Shown: positions 42,461 through 54,081 of the stretch, piece after piece
Layout of the letters: each line of letters starts with the position of its first letter
Position numbering within the stretch: position 1 is the first letter of the stretch
DNA from: Escherichia coli
Lineage (GTDB): Bacteria; Pseudomonadota; Gammaproteobacteria; Enterobacterales; Enterobacteriaceae
DNA: 64,000 nt
Assembly: GCF_003018255.1 (NCBI RefSeq)
Contig: NZ_CP027440.1
Direction: 5' to 3' (one strand)
Notes under the pieces: model-generated
Seen by the model: only the letters and a program-made list of their open reading frames with translations
The model's database searches: none
What the model was told of the DNA's origin: nothing
Position numbers and translations under genes: made by a program

Positions 42461-44428
<1,968 letters not shown>

Positions 44429-44682: not shown

Positions 44683-44916
44683 TTAATGCAGCCAGCTGTC
44701 GTCTTCCCACACCTTTTGCATAATTTTCATCACTTGCTTCCTTTCTTCGTCCAGTTGCAGTCCTGTCAGTTCCACACCGTTAGAGCTACCTTTACGGATA
44801 CGAATTACCGTTTTGGGATACAGGGGGCGCAGATTGCGGTAAAGCTCGGATTCAAGGGCGTCCAGGGTAGACTGGCTAATCTTCTGCTCTTTATCGATCA
44901 TTATTTCAATGCGCAT
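44683..44916 (-). CDS. DinI-family protein (78 aa), resembling the C-terminal part of a 186 Tum-type SOS antirepressor
   Basis: ORF 44683..44988; start set to MRIEIMIDKEQ..., which parallels the DinI N-terminus (MRIEVTIAK...). Confidence 0.7.
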   Translation of the reverse strand: MRIEIMIDKEQKISQSTLDALESELYRNLRPLYPKTVIRIRKGSSNGVELTGLQLDEERKQVMKIMQKVWEDDSWLH

Positions 44917-44926
44917 AAAAGTCACC

Positions 44927-45115
44927 TCAGCTGATGACATCCATTGAGCGGTTGTATTCGTGGGTTCTGATTTTTGCCATGAGTTCATCTGTCAGTTCAG
45001 AAACCCACTGCAGAGCCAGCCCCTTCTCTTCATCACTACACTCACTAGCCGCTACAAGCTTAAGAAAAAAATCAATGCGCTGGAGCTTCAAAGACTCCAA
45101 AAAATAGTCCTGCAT
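44927..45115 (-). CDS. Small protein (62 aa), first gene of the LexA-boxed operon; possibly the N-terminal part of a Tum-like antirepressor
   Basis: ORF 44927..45217; start set to MQDYFLESL...; stop lies ~10 nt before the DinI-like start. Confidence 0.5.
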   Translation of the reverse strand: MQDYFLESLKLQRIDFFLKLVAASECSDEEKGLALQWVSELTDELMAKIRTHEYNRSMDVIS

Positions 45116-45156
45116 CTTTCCTCCTATGACACCACACGCAATACTGTATGTATAAC

Positions 45157-45176
45157 CACTGTTTATATTTACAGTA
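45157..45176. promoter_or_regulatory. LexA (SOS) box CACTGTTTATATTTACAGTA
   Basis: Perfect CTGT-N8-ACAG with AT-rich spacer, ~40 bp upstream of the small ORF; a second partial TACTGTATGT half-site is adjacent. Confidence 0.75.
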
Positions 45177-45268
45177 TATAATAATCTTACTGATGTAAAA
45201 CGTTTTTTTACATTCATCAGCCTGATATGCCTGGTATTATTAAGAGCACGAATTGTTAACCCGCGTAA

Positions 45269-47710
45269 TTAATACAGGTTCCGCCACTGATCATCTTCCT
45301 GCAAACGCTGGTTCCGATAGAAGATACGCAGGCCTGCTCCTGACGGAATACTGCCTCCGCGAAGGAGTAAATCGACCTCTTTCTCGCTGCCATCAAATCC
45401 TCTGGACTTCAGCTCATACACGAGCTGCAGTCGCTGATGGTCTGTAATTCGCTGTTTGTAGTCTTTACGCCGTTTCGGTTTCACCAGGCGTAACCTTGCA
45501 GCCAGTTCCCGGCGCTCTTTTTTGCTCATACTGTGCAGGTAATCGTGCAACTCCTTGTCATCCATGCGGGTAATGTCCGTTCTGGTATCCCCATCAGCTG
45601 ATTTGTCTTTCCCTTGTTGGTTCAAATTTTCAGCAAGGGGACAGTTATTGCCACGAGTCCAAGGGGCGCAAGCGCCCTGGTCGGCTGCCGCCTCCTGAAC
45701 GTCAACGGCCTTACGAACCATTTTCCACTTCACTGCATGAGTGCAGATCTTGCCCTCTGCAATGGGTGACCAGATGCCATAAATACGAATACCGTGATCA
45801 CCATAGGCGGTCGGCTCTTCGTTGATTTCATAAGCGGTTCTGATCAAGTGATATTTGCGGGGAACCAGTACGCCGCCCTGCTTCATAATGTAGGTGGCAA
45901 AACAGCCAGCATCAGCAGCAGCCAGAATGGCATCAAGGCGCGGGTTATCCAGTACCGACGCACCTGCTTTTTTGTCACCCTGTTGCCTTGCCGCCTGACC
46001 AGCCAGCAATCGCAGTTCACGGTAAGCCTGACGCCCCGGAATGCCAAAGAAGCGGAATTGCTGAACACGATGCAGAGACGCCCAGGCATTAACGTATTCA
46101 GCATTATCACGCAGGGATTTACCCGTTTCCTTGCTGATCTCGCCAGCCAGACCACGCCCGTCAATGTTCTTACTGATGTATTTCGCGATGTAGCTTGTTG
46201 GCGTACCTTTGCGCGGGTTTATCAGCTCAGACTTAAAGCGTGGCCCCGTGTTATTACCCAGCTCCTCGCGGTCTTCACGAATGGCAAACTTACGCAGCAA
46301 AGCAGTAATGGCGCGGCGATCTTTTTTGCGCATGAAACACAACAGGTGCCAGTGAACTGTGCCGTCATGATGCGGCTCAGCCACCCGCACGCCATACCAG
46401 CGCAACCCGGTTTTGTGCATAGCCTTACGAAATGCAGCAAACATGCCGACCAGATAATCGCTGCTTTGTCTTACCGTCGCGTTTGTCCAGGTCGGGTTTG
46501 GTCTGCCGTTATTGAGCGTGGAATGGAAACGCGACGGACAGGTGATGGTGTAGAAAACGGCACAGTCACTGCGCATTTCCGCGATAAGCTCCAGACCTTT
46601 AACACAGGCCATCATCTCATTGCGGCGATGCGCCGGGTTGCTGCTGCTGGCCTTTACCACATCTTCCATATCCAGCGTGTCGCCGTTTTCGTTCACCAGT
46701 TCATGAGAACGGAAAAACTCCAGCGACTTACGGCGCTGCTCACGTTTATGCATCACGGCTTCATAGCTGACATAGGGAGATGCTTTTTTGCTGACCAGGC
46801 AGACAGCACGCAACTGCTCTTCCCGCCATTCGCAGCGCATCTTCCATAATTTCCGATACCACCAGTCGGCACACAACATACGCGCCAGCGAACCCGGAAT
46901 GAGTTCATAGGGCACGGGTTTGCGACGCTTTCTTTTCCGACGAAGTTGCTCAAACGCAGGCGGGATAACATCCAGTCGCAGGGTTTCCGCTGCCACCTTT
47001 TCCCATGTCTTGCGGATTTCTTCTGGCTTAACATCATCGGTGGCGTACAAATCACCACAAGCGGCATCAAGGCACATGCTCATATGCGCAGCTACCAGGG
47101 TGGACAGGCGTTTCACCTGATCCTGACTCATTTCAGGCAGGATCAGCAGGCCGTCCAGCCCTTCATGGCTCGCCATAAAGCGAAAAGAAGTGGATAGCTG
47201 ACTGTCGCGTACATGCTCCAGCCGTTCCAGACATGGCTTAATCGTCTCACGCAAATAGCGAGAATAAGCCTTTGGCCTGCCCAGGCTGCTGAAGTATTCA
47301 ATACGTTGCATCAGCGGCTTGCTGATATGGGAAGGCTGGGCGTTAACGTCCGCCAGAATGACCATGTCCGGATTAAAACGCTGCTGCTCATGCGCCAGCT
47401 TTGCCCGGCTAATGAGCTTATCCTGCTCCATTTCGCGTTGGACAGGATCACGGGATTCATTAAAGAAATAACGCTCCCAGACCTGATCACTCAGTGCCTC
47501 GCGGCGCAGTTGTTCCTGCTCGTTATCGGCAGCGTACAGAGTGATCAGGTTTGAAAGCGCAGAAACCGGCGCAACTTCCGCCGGGTCCAGATAAGGGTTA
47601 ATGGCTTTCTTAGGTAAATTCCACGAATAACCCCCGGCAGAATTCTCAATGCTACCGGAAGTTACACTGACAAATGGATCGGCAAGACGGCCTGTGCTGA
47701 TCTCTGTCAC
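45269..47710 (-). CDS. A: Replication initiation protein (P2 gpA / 186 RepA family rolling-circle initiator, 813 aa)
   Basis: Size, position and paired catalytic tyrosines (...YIAKYISKN...). Confidence 0.88.
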
Positions 47711-48717
47711 TCACAGACTCCTGCATATACACTGCTGCACACCGCTTTATCATTCATGCCTGCCAGCAGGTCAAACTGCATACCGCCCCGAGTTGTTAAG
47801 GCCCAGTCCCGATAAGTTTCAATGCCATAAGCATCAACAGTTATGACTTCGATCCGTTTTTCATCACGGCGCGGATCATGCGTGGATGGAAAGAACGTTG
47901 AATTGCCACGTCTTGAACATTCCGCAACCAGTCTTTCCCACTCAGCCACTCGGCGGATTTCTTCTGGCCAGCGTTGGAAAATCTCAGCAAGTTCTGACTT
48001 GCGAGCATGAATACATGGCATACAACCGACACGACTGCATCCCTGCATATAAAGGGGGTTAGGCTTAATGCCATGACGTTTGGCAATAGCAAACACATCC
48101 TCATGCAGCCAATTAAGGATCGGACGATAAACATGCAGGCCCAGAGTATTGTCTGCATCGTCCTCCCACTCAGGCAACAATGCACGTTCCGGTGATTCCT
48201 GCCCCCGGACTCCTTGCCAGCTGATTACCTCATCGTATTCATCCAGAGCCGGATCGATTACCTGTGTACGTATTGGTTCATGTTTTAGTTCAAAAGTGCA
48301 GAAACGAGCTTTTGTTGAAGGGAAGCGACCTTTCCACATGCACAAATCAAGAAACGGAACGCCGGTTGGTTTAAGGATTTCCAGTGCCCGGTAAATACGT
48401 TCCTCAGCCTCATCTGTCGACATACCACATTCCTCAACGAGAGAAATGGGCCACTTTTCCGCAATGAATTTACGTTTCCCTTCTATCTGGCGTGTGAAAT
48501 CCGCTTTGACGCGAATAATCTTGCCCAGCTTTGATTCCAGATAATCCAGATATTCTATTGTCTGTGGATGTTCATGACCCGTATCGGCAAATACAGAAAT
48601 ATGCGGAACATCGTTTTCAATGGCTCTTAACCATTGAGCGAGACTATCTTTGCCACCAGAAGTAGTGATGATGTTAATGGTGCTTGAAGCAAAGCAACGC
48701 GGATCGATAGCATTCAT
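47707..48717 (-). CDS. PP-loop ATP pyrophosphatase, PAPS-reductase-like (336 aa)
   Basis: PP-loop motif TTSGGKDS near the N-terminus; Cys-rich C-terminal part; translationally coupled to dam upstream and A downstream. Confidence 0.75.
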
Positions 48718-49562
48718 GCGCGTACCTCAACGGTACGGTCAGAGCCGCTGGCAAAATCGACACCAAACCACCCAGCTGATTTGGTGGCAATGATTTCTGT
48801 TGCAGATTTACTCTCGCCAGCTGACACGCCAATGCTGCGTTTTGACTTGATGTAGTGGTGAGTGAAATTGCGATACAGCGAACGGATCAGGGATGTGTCA
48901 CTGTTAGAAACAATGACCGGATGACCTTCAGATGATCGATGTTCAAGAACGGATGCCAGGTGATACTGGTCATCTTCAGTGAAGCCATCAGTGTGATAGC
49001 CGGAAAACGTACCGTCATAAGGCGGATCGCAATATACCACATCCCCCACCTTCAACATCGCCAGCGTTTCATCAAAGCTGGCGCAGATAAACGTTGCCCG
49101 CTGGGCTTTCTCTGCAAATGCGCGAATTTCTTTTTCAGGGAAATACGGATTTTTATAATTACCGTAGGGAATGTTGAAATACCCGCTCTTGTTATAGCGA
49201 CATAGCCCACGGTAACCATGACGATTGAGATACAGAAAATATACCGCTTTCATGAAATCAGTAATTTCAGTGGAGTAATTAAACTCCTGCCTTATGTTGT
49301 AATAAGCCACCTCTCTGTTTGCTTCCTCAAATAAAGCTCTGGCACGAGATATAAACGCCTCACAATCAGCAGCAACCTTTTTATAGAGGTTGATTAAATC
49401 AGGATTAATATCCGCAACCAGATAGCTGGGGTAATCCGTCTCCATCATCACAGCACAAGAACCCGCGAAAGGTTCAACCAGTCGCGGGCCAGCAGGAAGG
49501 TATTTTTTCAGTTCGGACATAATGGCGGTTTTATTACCCGCCCATTTCAGGATGGTGCTCAT
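48714..49562 (-). CDS. dam: DNA adenine methyltransferase (Dam-type, D12 class)
   Basis: [11 protein letters not shown]-binding start and DPPY catalytic motif; start set to [11 protein letters not shown]. Confidence 0.9.
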
Positions 49563-49861
49563 ACAGCACCTCCTGCAATAACATATCCTAAAGCTTCTAA
49601 TGGGGTTAATGAGCGAATTGATAGCATCACCCATTGTTCTGAAACTGCCATGACGTCATTAACCGGAAGCACATGAGAGATAACCGCGGCCCATTCCCTA
49701 CCCGTAAATACGCCATGCTTCCATTCGCAAAGAGAAAGAACATCACCAACTTTATAGCCACGATCGTCTTTACGAAGTTCAGCCGTCTTTTGACCTGCAA
49801 CCACAGCGTTGAAATACTTAGGTGCAATTTTTAATTGATGGATACGCACAGCCCCTGTCAT
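49559..49861 (-). CDS. ASCH-like small protein (~100 aa)
   Basis: ORF 49559..49921 with start set to [11 protein letters not shown]...; fold assignment is from memory of similar phage proteins only. Confidence 0.5.
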
Positions 49862-50085
49862 ACAGCACCTCCGTTGTAATGTTTGCCTTTCAGCTCTGCG
49901 ATTTCCTGACAGGTAATGCAAAGCTGCACTCCTGGAATGGCGCGGCGGCGTGCTGGCGGAATTGGCGCTTCACATTCAATGCAAAGCACGCGAGACACGC
50001 CCGGTGTTTTGGCACGGGCAGCACGGATATGGCGCTGGCGTTCTTCTTCAACGCGCTGCTGTACGAGATCCATTGCATCAGCCAT
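49858..50085 (-). CDS. TraR/DksA-family C4 zinc-finger protein (75 aa)
   Basis: [26 protein letters not shown] four-cysteine motif. Confidence 0.7.
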
Positions 50086-51148: not shown

Positions 51149-51658
51149 TCACAGCAAACCGAATGAAGCACCGAGGCCAGTCACGGTATCAACTGCACTC
51201 GCCATCGCAGGATTAGCCTGTAAACGGGCCTGCAATGAAACAGCCGCCAGCGCCATCAGTCGTGTTACAGAGTTAATGCTGCTGATAGCATCACGACGAC
51301 CTGCACTGGTTTTTACATCGCCAGATACCGCACCTGCCGCGACACGTCCTATCTCTGCAGTTGCACTCATGACGTAATGCGGCAGTTTCTCTTTTGCTAC
51401 CTCATTAATCGGTACACATGGCAGGCAGTGAATCTGTGCCAGAAAACCATCTACCAGCGTTGAATCTTCAGTCAGATCGGTAAGCAACCAAATTTCTGGT
51501 GCGGTTAATAAATGAGGTTGAGCTGGGTTCAGTTTGTTCCGCAGAATCTGCACATTCATGCCTGCACGTTCTGCCAGTTGCACCAGATTGTGGCGCAGTG
51601 CGAATGCACGACAGGCTTCATCAAAATGTGGATGTTTGGAAACTTGGTAATCAAACAT
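51149..51658 (-). CDS. cII: CII-like transcriptional activator (phage 186 CII family)
   Basis: Close resemblance to 186 CII as I recall it ([10 protein letters not shown]...[26 protein letters not shown]...). Confidence 0.8.
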
Positions 51659-51722
51659 GGTTTTCAACTCCGAACTTATCGCAAAATCGAACTCAGCGTC
51701 TTATTGCGAAAATAGACGTCTA

Positions 51723-51926
51723 TTAAGCAGACAAAGCATCAACAGTCAGAGCAGCCAGGTTAATCATTACCTTTTCACGTTTTTTGTCTTTACGAAGACG
51801 ATGACGAGGTAGTCGGCCATCAGCCAACATGTCGTTAATCGTATCAATAGAAAGGCCAGTCAGTTCGCTATAACGTTCGATTGTGACATGTGGTGTATTC
51901 AGAGTAATTGAAATGTTAGGTGTCAT
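51723..51926 (-). CDS. apl: Apl/Cox-like excisionase and transcriptional regulator (67 aa)
   Basis: Small HTH protein, first gene of the lytic operon, divergent from cI. Confidence 0.65.
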
Positions 51927-52849: not shown

Positions 52850-53037
52850 CTTTTGCTTTTATATCTGCGCCTAAAATAAAAATGAGCCGCAGGTTAACCG
52901 CAAAAATTACATGCTCACATAGCAAAAAGAATAGCCAACTTAATTATGGCTTCAGTGAGATGTATGGTCGTAGGATTTCATACATTGACACTGGTTATAC
53001 ATACAGTGAAAATGCTCTCTACTGGAGGGCATTTTTT

Positions 53038-54081
53038 ATGGCAGTACGAAAACTAACCACAGGGAAATGGCTTTGCGAATGTTACCCCGCCGGACGCAGC
53101 GGGCGTCGCGTGCGTAAACAGTTCGCTACCAAAGGCGAAGCATTAGCTTTTGAGCGTCACACGATGGAGGAGGCAGAAGCTAAGCCTTGGCTTGGTGAAT
53201 CGGTAGACCGTCGAACTCTACAGGATATCGTTGAACTCTGGTTCAAACTGCACGGCAAATCCCTGACCGCTGGCGAGCATGTTTACGACAAGTTGATACT
53301 GATGGTCGATGCTCTCGGAAATCCCCTCGCCACCGATCTAACATCCAAAATGTTCGCGCACTATCGCGATAAGCGCCTGACGGGTGAAATCTACTTCAGC
53401 GAAAAATGGAAGAAAGGAGCCAGCCCGGTAACTATCAATCTGGAGCAAAGCTATCTGAGTGGGGTCTTTAGCGAGTTAGCCCGACTCGGTGAATGGACAG
53501 CACCAAATCCACTGGAGAACATGCGTAAATTCACCATTGCCGAAAAAGAAATGGCCTGGCTGACACATGAACAAATCACAGAGCTTCTGTTCGACTGTCA
53601 ACGCCAAAGCCCCCTGCTCGCTCTTGTCGTCAAAATCTGCTTGAGCACCGGAGCACGTTGGCGCGAAGCTGTGAACCTGACACGTTCTCAGGTCACGAAA
53701 TACCGAATCACATTTGTCAGAACTAAGGGCAAAAAAAACCGCAGCATTCCGATCAGCAAAGAGCTGTATGAGGAAATTGTTGCCCTAGACGGCTTCAAAT
53801 TATTTACTGACTGCTACTTCCAGTTTTTAGCCGTGATGGATAGAACCTCGATCGTACTACCACGCGGGCAACTTACCCACGTTCTACGCCATACGTTCGC
53901 AGCACATTTTATGATGTCCGGCGGGAACATTCTTGCTTTGCAAAAAATCCTGGGCCACCACGATATAAAAATGACTATGCGCTATGCACATCTTGCCCCT
54001 GATCACCTTGAAACAGCACTGCGTTTCAATCCATTAGCCACACTTTCCACTAAAGCAACGAACCTTGAAGCAAACAGCTAA
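53038..54081 (+). CDS. int: Tyrosine integrase (P2/186 family)
   Basis: ORF 52882..54081 trimmed to MAVRKLTTGKWLCECYPAG...; C-terminal catalytic region HVLRHTFAAHF...MRYAHL. Confidence 0.9.
   Translation: MAVRKLTTGKWLCECYPAGRSGRRVRKQFATKGEALAFERHTMEEAEAKPWLGESVDRRTLQDIVELWFKLHGKSLTAGEHVYDKLILMVDALGNPLATDLTSKMFAHYRDKRLTGEIYFSEKWKKGASPVTINLEQSYLSGVFSELARLGEWTAPNPLENMRKFTIAEKEMAWLTHEQITELLFDCQRQSPLLALVVKICLSTGARWREAVNLTRSQVTKYRITFVRTKGKKNRSIPISKELYEEIVALDGFKLFTDCYFQFLAVMDRTSIVLPRGQLTHVLRHTFAAHFMMSGGNILALQKILGHHDIKMTMRYAHLAPDHLETALRFNPLATLSTKATNLEANS

Follow-up and report, generated by a model that had tools for sequence, protein, structure and literature searches.

The early lytic operon of a 186-type P2-family prophage in the Escherichia coli chromosome carries an accessory-gene slot, in which three exchangeable cassettes are stacked between traR and the replication endonuclease gene A. 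The early region of the prophage occupies 42-54 kb of the window, which is the whole 64,000-nucleotide stretch analysed (assembly GCF_003018255.1, contig NZ_CP027440.1). The cassettes encode an ASCH-like protein, a Dam-family methyltransferase, and a PP-loop protein of 336 residues. The last of these is not new; it is the long-known Orf84 protein of phage 186 (CP84). A first-pass annotation had described four genes overlapping start to stop directly upstream of A (47707-50085), namely a TraR-type zinc finger, an ASCH-like protein, a Dam with DPPY, and a PP-loop protein with SGGKDS and a Cys-rich C-terminus. All four genes and their junctions are confirmed in the sequence, and family models and motifs agree with the assigned types. 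The finding is thus real but largely explained: a known family of phage genes has a further member here, the mosaic around it is one of several, and the rest of the block is an ordinary P2/186-like early operon. The comparative pattern suggests that CP84-type proteins are DNA-directed sulfur-transfer enzymes of the arms race between phage and host.

Exchangeable cassettes between traR and A

Phage 186: The orf84 gene of phage 186 is the last gene before A, overlaps it stop to start, and belongs to an early lytic operon in which it follows cII, fil, DUF2732, and TraR, as in the window. The two differ in what lies between traR and orf84. Phage 186 has a DnaQ-like exonuclease (CP82) and DUF5405 (CP83) there, and the window has the ASCH-like gene and dam.

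ASCH-like cassette: In the closest relatives, 23 E. coli genomes, the order is TraR-Dam-PP-loop-A without the ASCH-like gene, and their match is shorter by exactly 299 bp. A 15-nucleotide junction repeat, GGAGGTGCTGTATGA, comprises the Shine-Dalgarno sequence, the last codons of the preceding gene (GGAV), its stop codon, and the following ATG. The window has exactly two copies, one at each end of the ASCH-like gene, and relatives that lack this gene (loci L002, L092, and L013-L015) have one. The ASCH-like gene is therefore a 299-bp cassette put in at a reusable junction, and the repeat itself looks like a stop/start junction that serves for the exchange of cassettes. In the P2-type E. coli prophage L093, which has the order TraR-DUF5405-PP-loop-A, a DUF3850 gene lies just downstream of A (L093 1-213), so that the DUF3850/ASCH-like cassette shifts between a slot upstream and a slot downstream of A. 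Residues 1 to about 25 of the A protein vary with the upstream cassette among prophages (window 47630-47710, minus strand; L092, L093, and L001) and the rest is near-identical, which places recombination breakpoints inside the 5′ end of A.

Junctions: The DUF2732 and TraR genes overlap by 1 nucleotide (TAATG), and an ATGA overlap is read at the TraR/ASCH-like, ASCH-like/Dam, and Dam/PP-loop junctions. The PP-loop/A junction is GTGA, with GTG and not ATG as the start codon of A, whereas the homologous junctions of phage 186 and of L093 are ATGA; the difference comes from a GAA codon of the PP-loop gene that is GAG here, a synonymous change. A Shine-Dalgarno sequence of the GGAG type precedes each start within the final codons of the preceding gene. 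With these 4-nucleotide overlaps and internal ribosome-binding sites, ribosomes are handed on from cassette to cassette to the essential gene A.

Co-occurrence in E. coli: The first-pass annotation had taken the tight coupling to suggest a DNA-modification or anti-restriction module. A survey of 5,426 complete E. coli genomes does not bear out a fixed Dam/PP-loop pair. The PP-loop gene is present in 67 genomes, 23 with the window-type allele adjoining dam and 44 with a 186/P2-type allele of about 72% identity. The latter have no adjacent dam, and their neighbours in the listed examples are DUF5405 and/or the replication endonuclease. The 3′ part of dam matches about 1,273 genomes, only 23 of which have the Dam/PP-loop junction. 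The commonest arrangement is TraR-Dam-A, in which dam itself overlaps A (about 1,250 genomes). Klebsiella P2-like phages match dam and traR, and none of them matches the PP-loop gene. An obligate pair is ruled out by these counts and by phage 186, and a dedicated four-gene module gives way to a mosaic of cassettes. No methyltransferase link is demonstrable within E. coli P2-like prophages, where the genes are mostly apart.

The PP-loop protein and its family

Identity: The 336-residue protein is 81.4% identical to Orf84 (NP_052288.1) over residues 4-336, and identity, gene order, and the 4-nucleotide overlap with A place it in the Orf84/CP84 orthologous group. Among its neighbours in the AlphaFold database an older designation, "37.8 kDa protein in gpA 5′ region", is still found, and nearly all of these neighbours are unnamed "PAPS reductase family" proteins (PAPS, 3′-phosphoadenosine 5′-phosphosulfate). 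The papers searched for orf84 and CP84 contained nothing relevant. The family is very large, with 13,049 representatives at E ≤0.001 and 842 clusters (50% identity) at E ≤1e-30.

Lambda NinC: NinC of phage lambda (NP_040635.1; L096 782-1654) is a remote homolog (hhalign 99.2%, E 6e-20, 206 columns). It has the corresponding motifs SFSGGRTS, DTGCEHP, FCTDRLK, and CxxC and a Cys-rich C-terminus, and its gene too is dispensable and lies in the early region of a temperate phage. It differs in its low identity (24%), its length of 290 residues, its variant PP-loop (SGGRTS), and its place in the nin region operon. The family thus includes orf84 and is remotely related to ninC, two textbook genes that have been without a function for decades.

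Conserved motifs: The PP-loop ATP pyrophosphatase motif SGGKDS occupies residues 20-25, each of which is invariant or at least 90% conserved in 98 diverse homologs, and ATP hydrolysis is predicted from it. The same conservation holds for D45-T46, C140, R171/E174/S175/R178, RVGC232xxC235, and C335. These residues stand in the motifs D45-T46-G47-x-E49, F-C140-T-x-E-L-K145, G169-x-R171-x-x-E174-S175-x-x-R178, N220-P-L-Y223, and R-V-G-C232-x-P-C235, which are followed by C327 and a C-terminal G-x-C335-E at which most homologs stop. The protein has ten Cys residues, and those from residue 227 on are C227, C232, C235, C267, C327, and C335. In a profile alignment C232xxC235 falls on the GCEPC iron-sulfur (Fe-S) ligands of the adenosine 5′-phosphosulfate (APS) reductase 2GOY, where CysH has G-D, and makes these two residues putative Fe-S ligands. 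The conserved motifs thus combine an intact adenylation site, putative Fe-S cysteines of the APS-reductase or DndC kind, and an invariant C-terminal Cys.

Fold: An AlphaFold2 model built from the 98 homologs has a pLDDT of 93.8 and a pTM of 0.91; the invariant C335 sits on a C-terminal tail that is modelled with lower confidence. The best matches among solved structures are the PAPS-like domain of FAD synthase and the APS and PAPS reductases. Like the APS reductases (2GOY, 4BWV) and the PAPS reductase CysH (1SUR, 6VPU), the protein has a Cys near its C-terminus, and its CxxC aligns with the Fe-S ligands of the APS reductases. In contrast, these enzymes have a degenerate PP-loop where the phage protein has SGGKDS, and they lack its extra C-terminal domain of about 100 residues. 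APS reductases carry a Cys pair at the site equivalent to FCTxELK, and the phage protein has the single invariant C140 there.

Family models: Membership of the Pfam PAPS_reduct family is clear (Table 1). The NCBIfam models of CysH and APS reductase score far under their cutoffs (NF002537, 63.8 vs 154; TIGR02055, 48.3 vs 235.3; TIGR00434, 37.4 vs 165.1; TIGR02057, 36.9 vs 254.2), in line with the first-pass view that the gene does not serve sulfur assimilation. "PAPS reductase" is almost certainly a misnomer for the CP84 family. In the PADLOC defence library the matches rank SspD (1.8e-23), BrxP (3.5e-12), and DndC (3e-6). The SspD model PDLC02782 gives 81.6 bits, with a best stretch of only model positions 71-202 of 277, and it has no curated cutoff. 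DndC is rejected, as TIGR03183 reaches 17.2 bits against a cutoff of 290.4 over residues 133-210 only, and the PADLOC DndC models give 3e-6 or weaker. QueC (PF06508) has no significant match to the protein. The comparison proposed in the first-pass annotation thus returns the PAPS-reductase fold and a partial similarity to SspD, and not membership of DndC, CysH, or QueC. A weak sequence match to "PptA" (PDB 21fy), for which no literature was found, was set aside.

Relation to DNA thiolation enzymes: For DndC, both an Fe-S cluster and an ATP pyrophosphatase activity have been described (PMC8569181). DndC, SspD, and BrxP share with the phage protein the PAPS-reductase branch of the PP-loop superfamily, Fe-S or Cys motifs, and a DNA-modification context. 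The phage protein differs from them in being much shorter than DndC or BrxP, in its early lytic operon, and in having no NTPase, DndE, SspB, or desulfurase genes as neighbours. The [4Fe-4S] PP-loop thiolases of the TtuA, NcsA, and LarE type belong to another branch of the superfamily and act on tRNA or cofactors; the zinc-finger domains of this group are absent from the phage protein.

Methyltransferase partners and the function of CP84-type proteins

Annotated phages: Of ten annotated phages with homologs of 28-81% identity, seven have a DNA methyltransferase gene within 2.5 kb. An N4/N6 methylase gene overlaps the homolog in phiE125, and the first annotated gene upstream of the homolog in SFCi1, at a distance of about 250 bp, encodes an N4 methylase.

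IMG/VR loci: Open reading frames were called in 79 IMG/VR loci and searched with methyltransferase seeds, including two C5 families that had been found as recurrent neighbours and were confirmed as PHROG DNA methyltransferases. In 38 of the 79 loci a methyltransferase gene lies no more than 1 kb away, always on the same strand, and these genes belong to at least seven sequence families. Any methyltransferase within 6 kb on either side is present in 48 loci, and for these the 38 close cases compare with an average of 13.6 under random placement, where the highest count in 2,000 trials was 24. When each 70% cluster is represented by one locus, 16 of 20 loci have the gene this close, and the null gives 6.0. 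The null is a uniform placement, and it overstates the significance because the modular layout of phage genomes is not modelled. The partner methyltransferases differ in their chemistry, which makes it unlikely that the enzyme acts on one particular methylated base.

Fusions: The stronger evidence is a conserved fusion. Cluster P0244 and 16 related clusters (17 in total, 48-100% identity, 552-563 residues) join an N-terminal amino-methyltransferase, with YTTP, LDPGCGKG, and NPPF, to a full CP84-type domain. NPPF, SGGKDS, RVGCxPC, and the C-terminal FCE are retained in all of these clusters. The fusion genes lie in the early regions of Vibrio prophages, near RecT, YqaJ, and RdgC (L094 4777-7689; L095 6001-7683). 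A ParB_N domain is fused to a CP84-type domain in the archaeal virus Blf4. Recurrent adjacency and fusion in other phages thus support the link to DNA modification that the first-pass annotation had drawn.

Other neighbours and relatives: In L094 a separate D12-class Dam is encoded two genes upstream of the fusion, and RecT, YqaJ, RNase_T, and RdgC are close by. Genes of the phrog_355 nucleoside 2-deoxyribosyltransferase type adjoin the CP84 homologs of Pseudomonas phage Riah (L003 3491-4027) and Acidovorax phage Alfacinha3 (L007 738-1742), and are a further nucleotide or DNA-modification type of neighbour. Phage phi458 has a 414-residue relative (L097 2396-3640) with 38% identity to the PAPS part of the Vibrio fusion, which is annotated as a "putative transcriptional regulator" and follows kil-gam-exo in this lambdoid phage. 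Relatives of 414-444 residues are common in Enterobacterales. ASCH-like genes are not regular partners; a DUF3850- or ASCH-type gene lies within 2.5 kb in only 6 of the 79 loci. An apparent ASCH fusion in gp49 of Alfacinha3 was rejected, as the BLAST match covers 22 residues only (E 3e-4), Pfam finds no ASCH domain, and the N-terminus is phrog_625. The recurrent neighbour phrog_874, with the motif RPILF..MVRAIL.G.KTQTRR, was likewise rejected as ASCH-like, having no Pfam match and 1.7% in hhalign against the DUF3850 alignment.

Anti-Dnd cassette of a Vibrio podovirus: The first-pass annotation knew of no function for the pairing, and a related one has been published. In protein p0018 of the Vibrio crassostreae podovirus 44E38.1 a PAPS-reductase domain is followed by a Dam domain at the C-terminus, and when its gene and a neighbouring gene were moved into a sensitive Vibrio phage, the phage grew on a Dnd host and escaped DndFGH (bioRxiv 10.1101/2021.05.05.442762). 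This result is cited in a 2026 preprint, which counts PAPS reductases encoded in Aca-regulated operons among the candidates for anti-defence genes. As in the window, an accessory region of a phage brings together a PAPS-reductase-type domain and an adenine methyltransferase, and for p0018 the role in counter-defence has been shown genetically. In contrast to the window, p0018 is one polypeptide, its methyltransferase is of a small Dam type, and its PAPS domain is a distant relative. Phage 44E38.1 was not recovered among the matches to the CP84 family with three different queries, and the comparison with p0018 is therefore by analogy.

Favoured reading: The PAPS/APS-reductase fold, the canonical PP-loop, the putative Fe-S cysteine ligands, and the invariant C-terminal Cys point to an ATP-dependent sulfurtransferase. 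The CP84-type protein would adenylate its substrate, and sulfur would reach the substrate by way of a persulfide or an Fe-S site. This substrate would be DNA, most likely its backbone in the manner of DndC and SspD. The enzyme might plug into the host IscS and host Dnd or Ssp partners, or it might be targeted to DNA through a methyltransferase. Expressed early beside a DNA methyltransferase, it would let replicating phage DNA evade modification-sensing restriction such as Dnd or Ssp. The enzymology, the DNA substrate, and the anti-restriction role are all predictions from sequence comparison, and such a sulfurtransferase for counter-restriction is favoured here tentatively, as a reading that may well need revision. 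If correct, it would explain what the many phage proteins annotated as "PAPS reductase" do. A bolder form is doubtful. In this form CP84/NinC-type proteins would carry out self-sufficient or methyltransferase-guided DNA thiolation, taking sulfur from host IscS and recognition from the methyltransferase, and would make a phosphorothioate or a thio-base without an NTPase of the DndD, SspC, or BrxC type. Phages would then carry one more route to sulfur-modified DNA, with which to defeat modification-sensing defence.

Several results weigh against DNA-directed sulfur transfer. In the phage 186 record, orf84 is entered as a non-essential gene with neither a function nor a phenotype. The match to SspD is partial, DndC fails its cutoff, and the top 50 neighbours in AFDB50 include no DndC or SspD entry. 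All characterised phosphorothioation systems require a PAPS-domain protein together with an NTPase (PMC12914056). The operon, which consists of cII, the fil-like gene, DUF5347, DUF2732, TraR, the ASCH-like gene, dam, the PP-loop gene, and A, has no NTPase (DndD, SspC, or BrxC type), no DNA-binding or nicking partner (DndE or SspB), and no cysteine desulfurase. The anti-Dnd swap moved two genes jointly, so its effect is not attributable to the PAPS domain alone, which is itself distant, and the failure to recover 44E38.1 counts on the same side. The proximity of methyltransferase genes could stem from a shared early accessory region. In E. coli the two genes are mostly separate (about 1,270 genomes with dam, 44 with the PP-loop gene and no adjacent dam, and 23 with both).

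Alternative readings: The main rival is coincidence: the dam cassette and that of the CP84-type enzyme would be independent of each other and merely share a variable slot, the enzyme having a substrate other than DNA, such as a tRNA to be thiolated, a nucleotide, or a small-molecule signal. Their separation in most E. coli prophages, the exonuclease and DUF5405 beside orf84 in phage 186, and the ASCH-like cassette, which shows simple junction-mediated shuffling at the slot, all fit this reading. Against it stand the conserved fusions to an NPPF methyltransferase of the DNA type, where neither partner has lost its catalytic motifs, the ParB_N fusion, and the significant same-strand proximity to many methyltransferase families in unrelated phages, and it is judged rather unlikely. 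The remaining alternatives are minor. The gene could be an expression device, selected mainly to bring ribosomes to A and prevent premature termination, with a dispensable or vestigial enzyme function. According to the phage 186 record, translation of A appears to need translation through the end of orf84, and the terminator tM1 lies early in A; the stop/start overlap is also conserved as ATGA or GTGA. This reading is improbable, as any upstream cassette serves the purpose, with dam directly overlapping A in about 1,250 genomes, and the catalytic motifs are invariant across the 842 clusters, in phages without an A gene.

A Mom-like hypermodification is less probable again. Dam would make N6-methyladenine, and the PP-loop enzyme would elaborate the methylated or a neighbouring adenine. 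In its favour is the close ATGA junction with dam, found in the window and at 12 of the 15 P2/186-like IMG/VR loci with the gene beside A, as is the ASCH/PUA-like fold, a family that binds modified bases (bioRxiv 10.64898/2026.01.15.699771). The partners elsewhere include C5-cytosine, N4/N6 (PF01555-like), and small Dam-like methyltransferases, which leaves no single methylated base as a common substrate, and phage 186 has the enzyme without any phage methyltransferase. An equally slight chance is given to a co-activator of the IbrA/IbrB kind, in which a PAPS-reductase-like regulator acts on prophage genes with a ParB-like partner. IbrA is PAPS-reductase-like, ParB-like genes flank the homologs in phiE125 and lie near the one in Riah, and both the ParB_N fusion of Blf4 and the annotation of the phi458 homolog would suit a regulator. 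The window operon has no ParB-like gene, and the PRK06850 model (505 residues) reaches 22 bits against a cutoff of 536. True sulfate assimilation, by an auxiliary PAPS or APS reductase as the database name implies, is the least likely of all and hardly credible. The Pfam family and the solved-structure matches agree with it. The family cutoffs, the SGGKDS motif, which is not in CysH and is aligned there with S-S-F-G, the extra C-terminal domain, and the place of the gene in a phage early operon beside DNA enzymes all speak against it.

Operon layout and neighbouring genes

Table 1. Features of the prophage early region, with positions in the window
Feature	Position	Strand	Evidence or remark
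Integrase	52882-54081
apl/cox-like	51723-51926	-
cII	51149-51667	-
fil-like, then DUF5347	between cII and DUF2732	-
DUF2732 backbone gene, 79 aa	50085-50324	-	phrog_128 1.6e-33; same annotation in 186 and E. coli relatives
TraR/DksA-type C4 zinc finger, 75 aa	49858-50085	-	TIGR02419; phrog_54 1.4e-30
GGAGGTGCTGTATGA, first copy, TraR/ASCH junction	49858-49872	-
DUF3850/ASCH-like, 100 aa	49559-49861	-	PF12961 1.4e-23; PF04266 2.3e-5; phrog_986 2.1e-39
GGAGGTGCTGTATGA, second copy, ASCH/Dam junction	49559-49573	-
Dam-family orphan N6-adenine DNA methyltransferase (predicted), 282 aa	48714-49562	-	TIGR00571; PADLOC orphan MTase 1e-109
PP-loop/PAPS-reductase-fold protein, 336 aa, putative Fe-S	47707-48717	-	PF01507 2e-33; ortholog of phage 186 Orf84 (CP84)
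Replication endonuclease A, 813 aa from GTG	45269-47710	-	overlaps PP-loop gene (GTGA)

Neighbouring gene products: The TraR protein scores 65.8 bits with TIGR02419 (cutoff 59.7). It is a backbone gene product of the P2/186-like early operon, and is also present in phage 186 and in prophages without the PP-loop gene. The ASCH-like protein matches the DUF3850 and ASCH families of Pfam (PF12961 and PF04266). Dam scores 319.7 bits with TIGR00571 (cutoff 114.85), and lies below the equivalog cutoff of the host Dam (285 vs 441). Its FAGS motif I is at residue 32 and DPPY at residue 179, and family and motifs together make it a predicted adenine methyltransferase.

Gene starts and transcription signals: The mechanical list of open reading frames has longer frames for dam (306 residues) and the ASCH-like gene (120 residues). 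The starts at 49562 and 49861, respectively, are supported by homology and give the ATGA overlaps. No promoter-like sites were found on the minus strand within the block, and terminator-like sites are no more frequent there than by chance, which is consistent with a single operon. At 48761-48786 (minus strand) a hairpin with a 10-bp stem and a T-rich tail lies in the non-conserved 3′ end of dam, about 45 nucleotides before the PP-loop start; the count of such sites in the region equals chance.

Flanking genes: DsrA, rseX, and one tRNA lie outside the prophage early region. Downstream of A, where phage 186 has its SOS operon, the window has a DinI/Tum-like gene (44683-44988, minus strand; phrog_189, 1.2e-30) and a phrog_698 gene (44927-45217, minus strand). 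Between these genes and the capsid genes is a retron reverse transcriptase of the RT-Toprim type I-C (42461-44401, minus strand; PADLOC 8.7e-217). Its open reading frame has 646 residues and the match begins near residue 61, which would give about 586 residues if translation starts at M61. An Rfam search for a retron non-coding RNA upstream of the reverse transcriptase gave no match. The same prophage thus encodes a retron reverse transcriptase and a Dam. The retron-Ec67 element encodes both a reverse transcriptase and a Dam, according to the title of a 1990 paper, and Dam methylation of the multicopy single-stranded DNA (msDNA) is the trigger of a different retron, Sen2.

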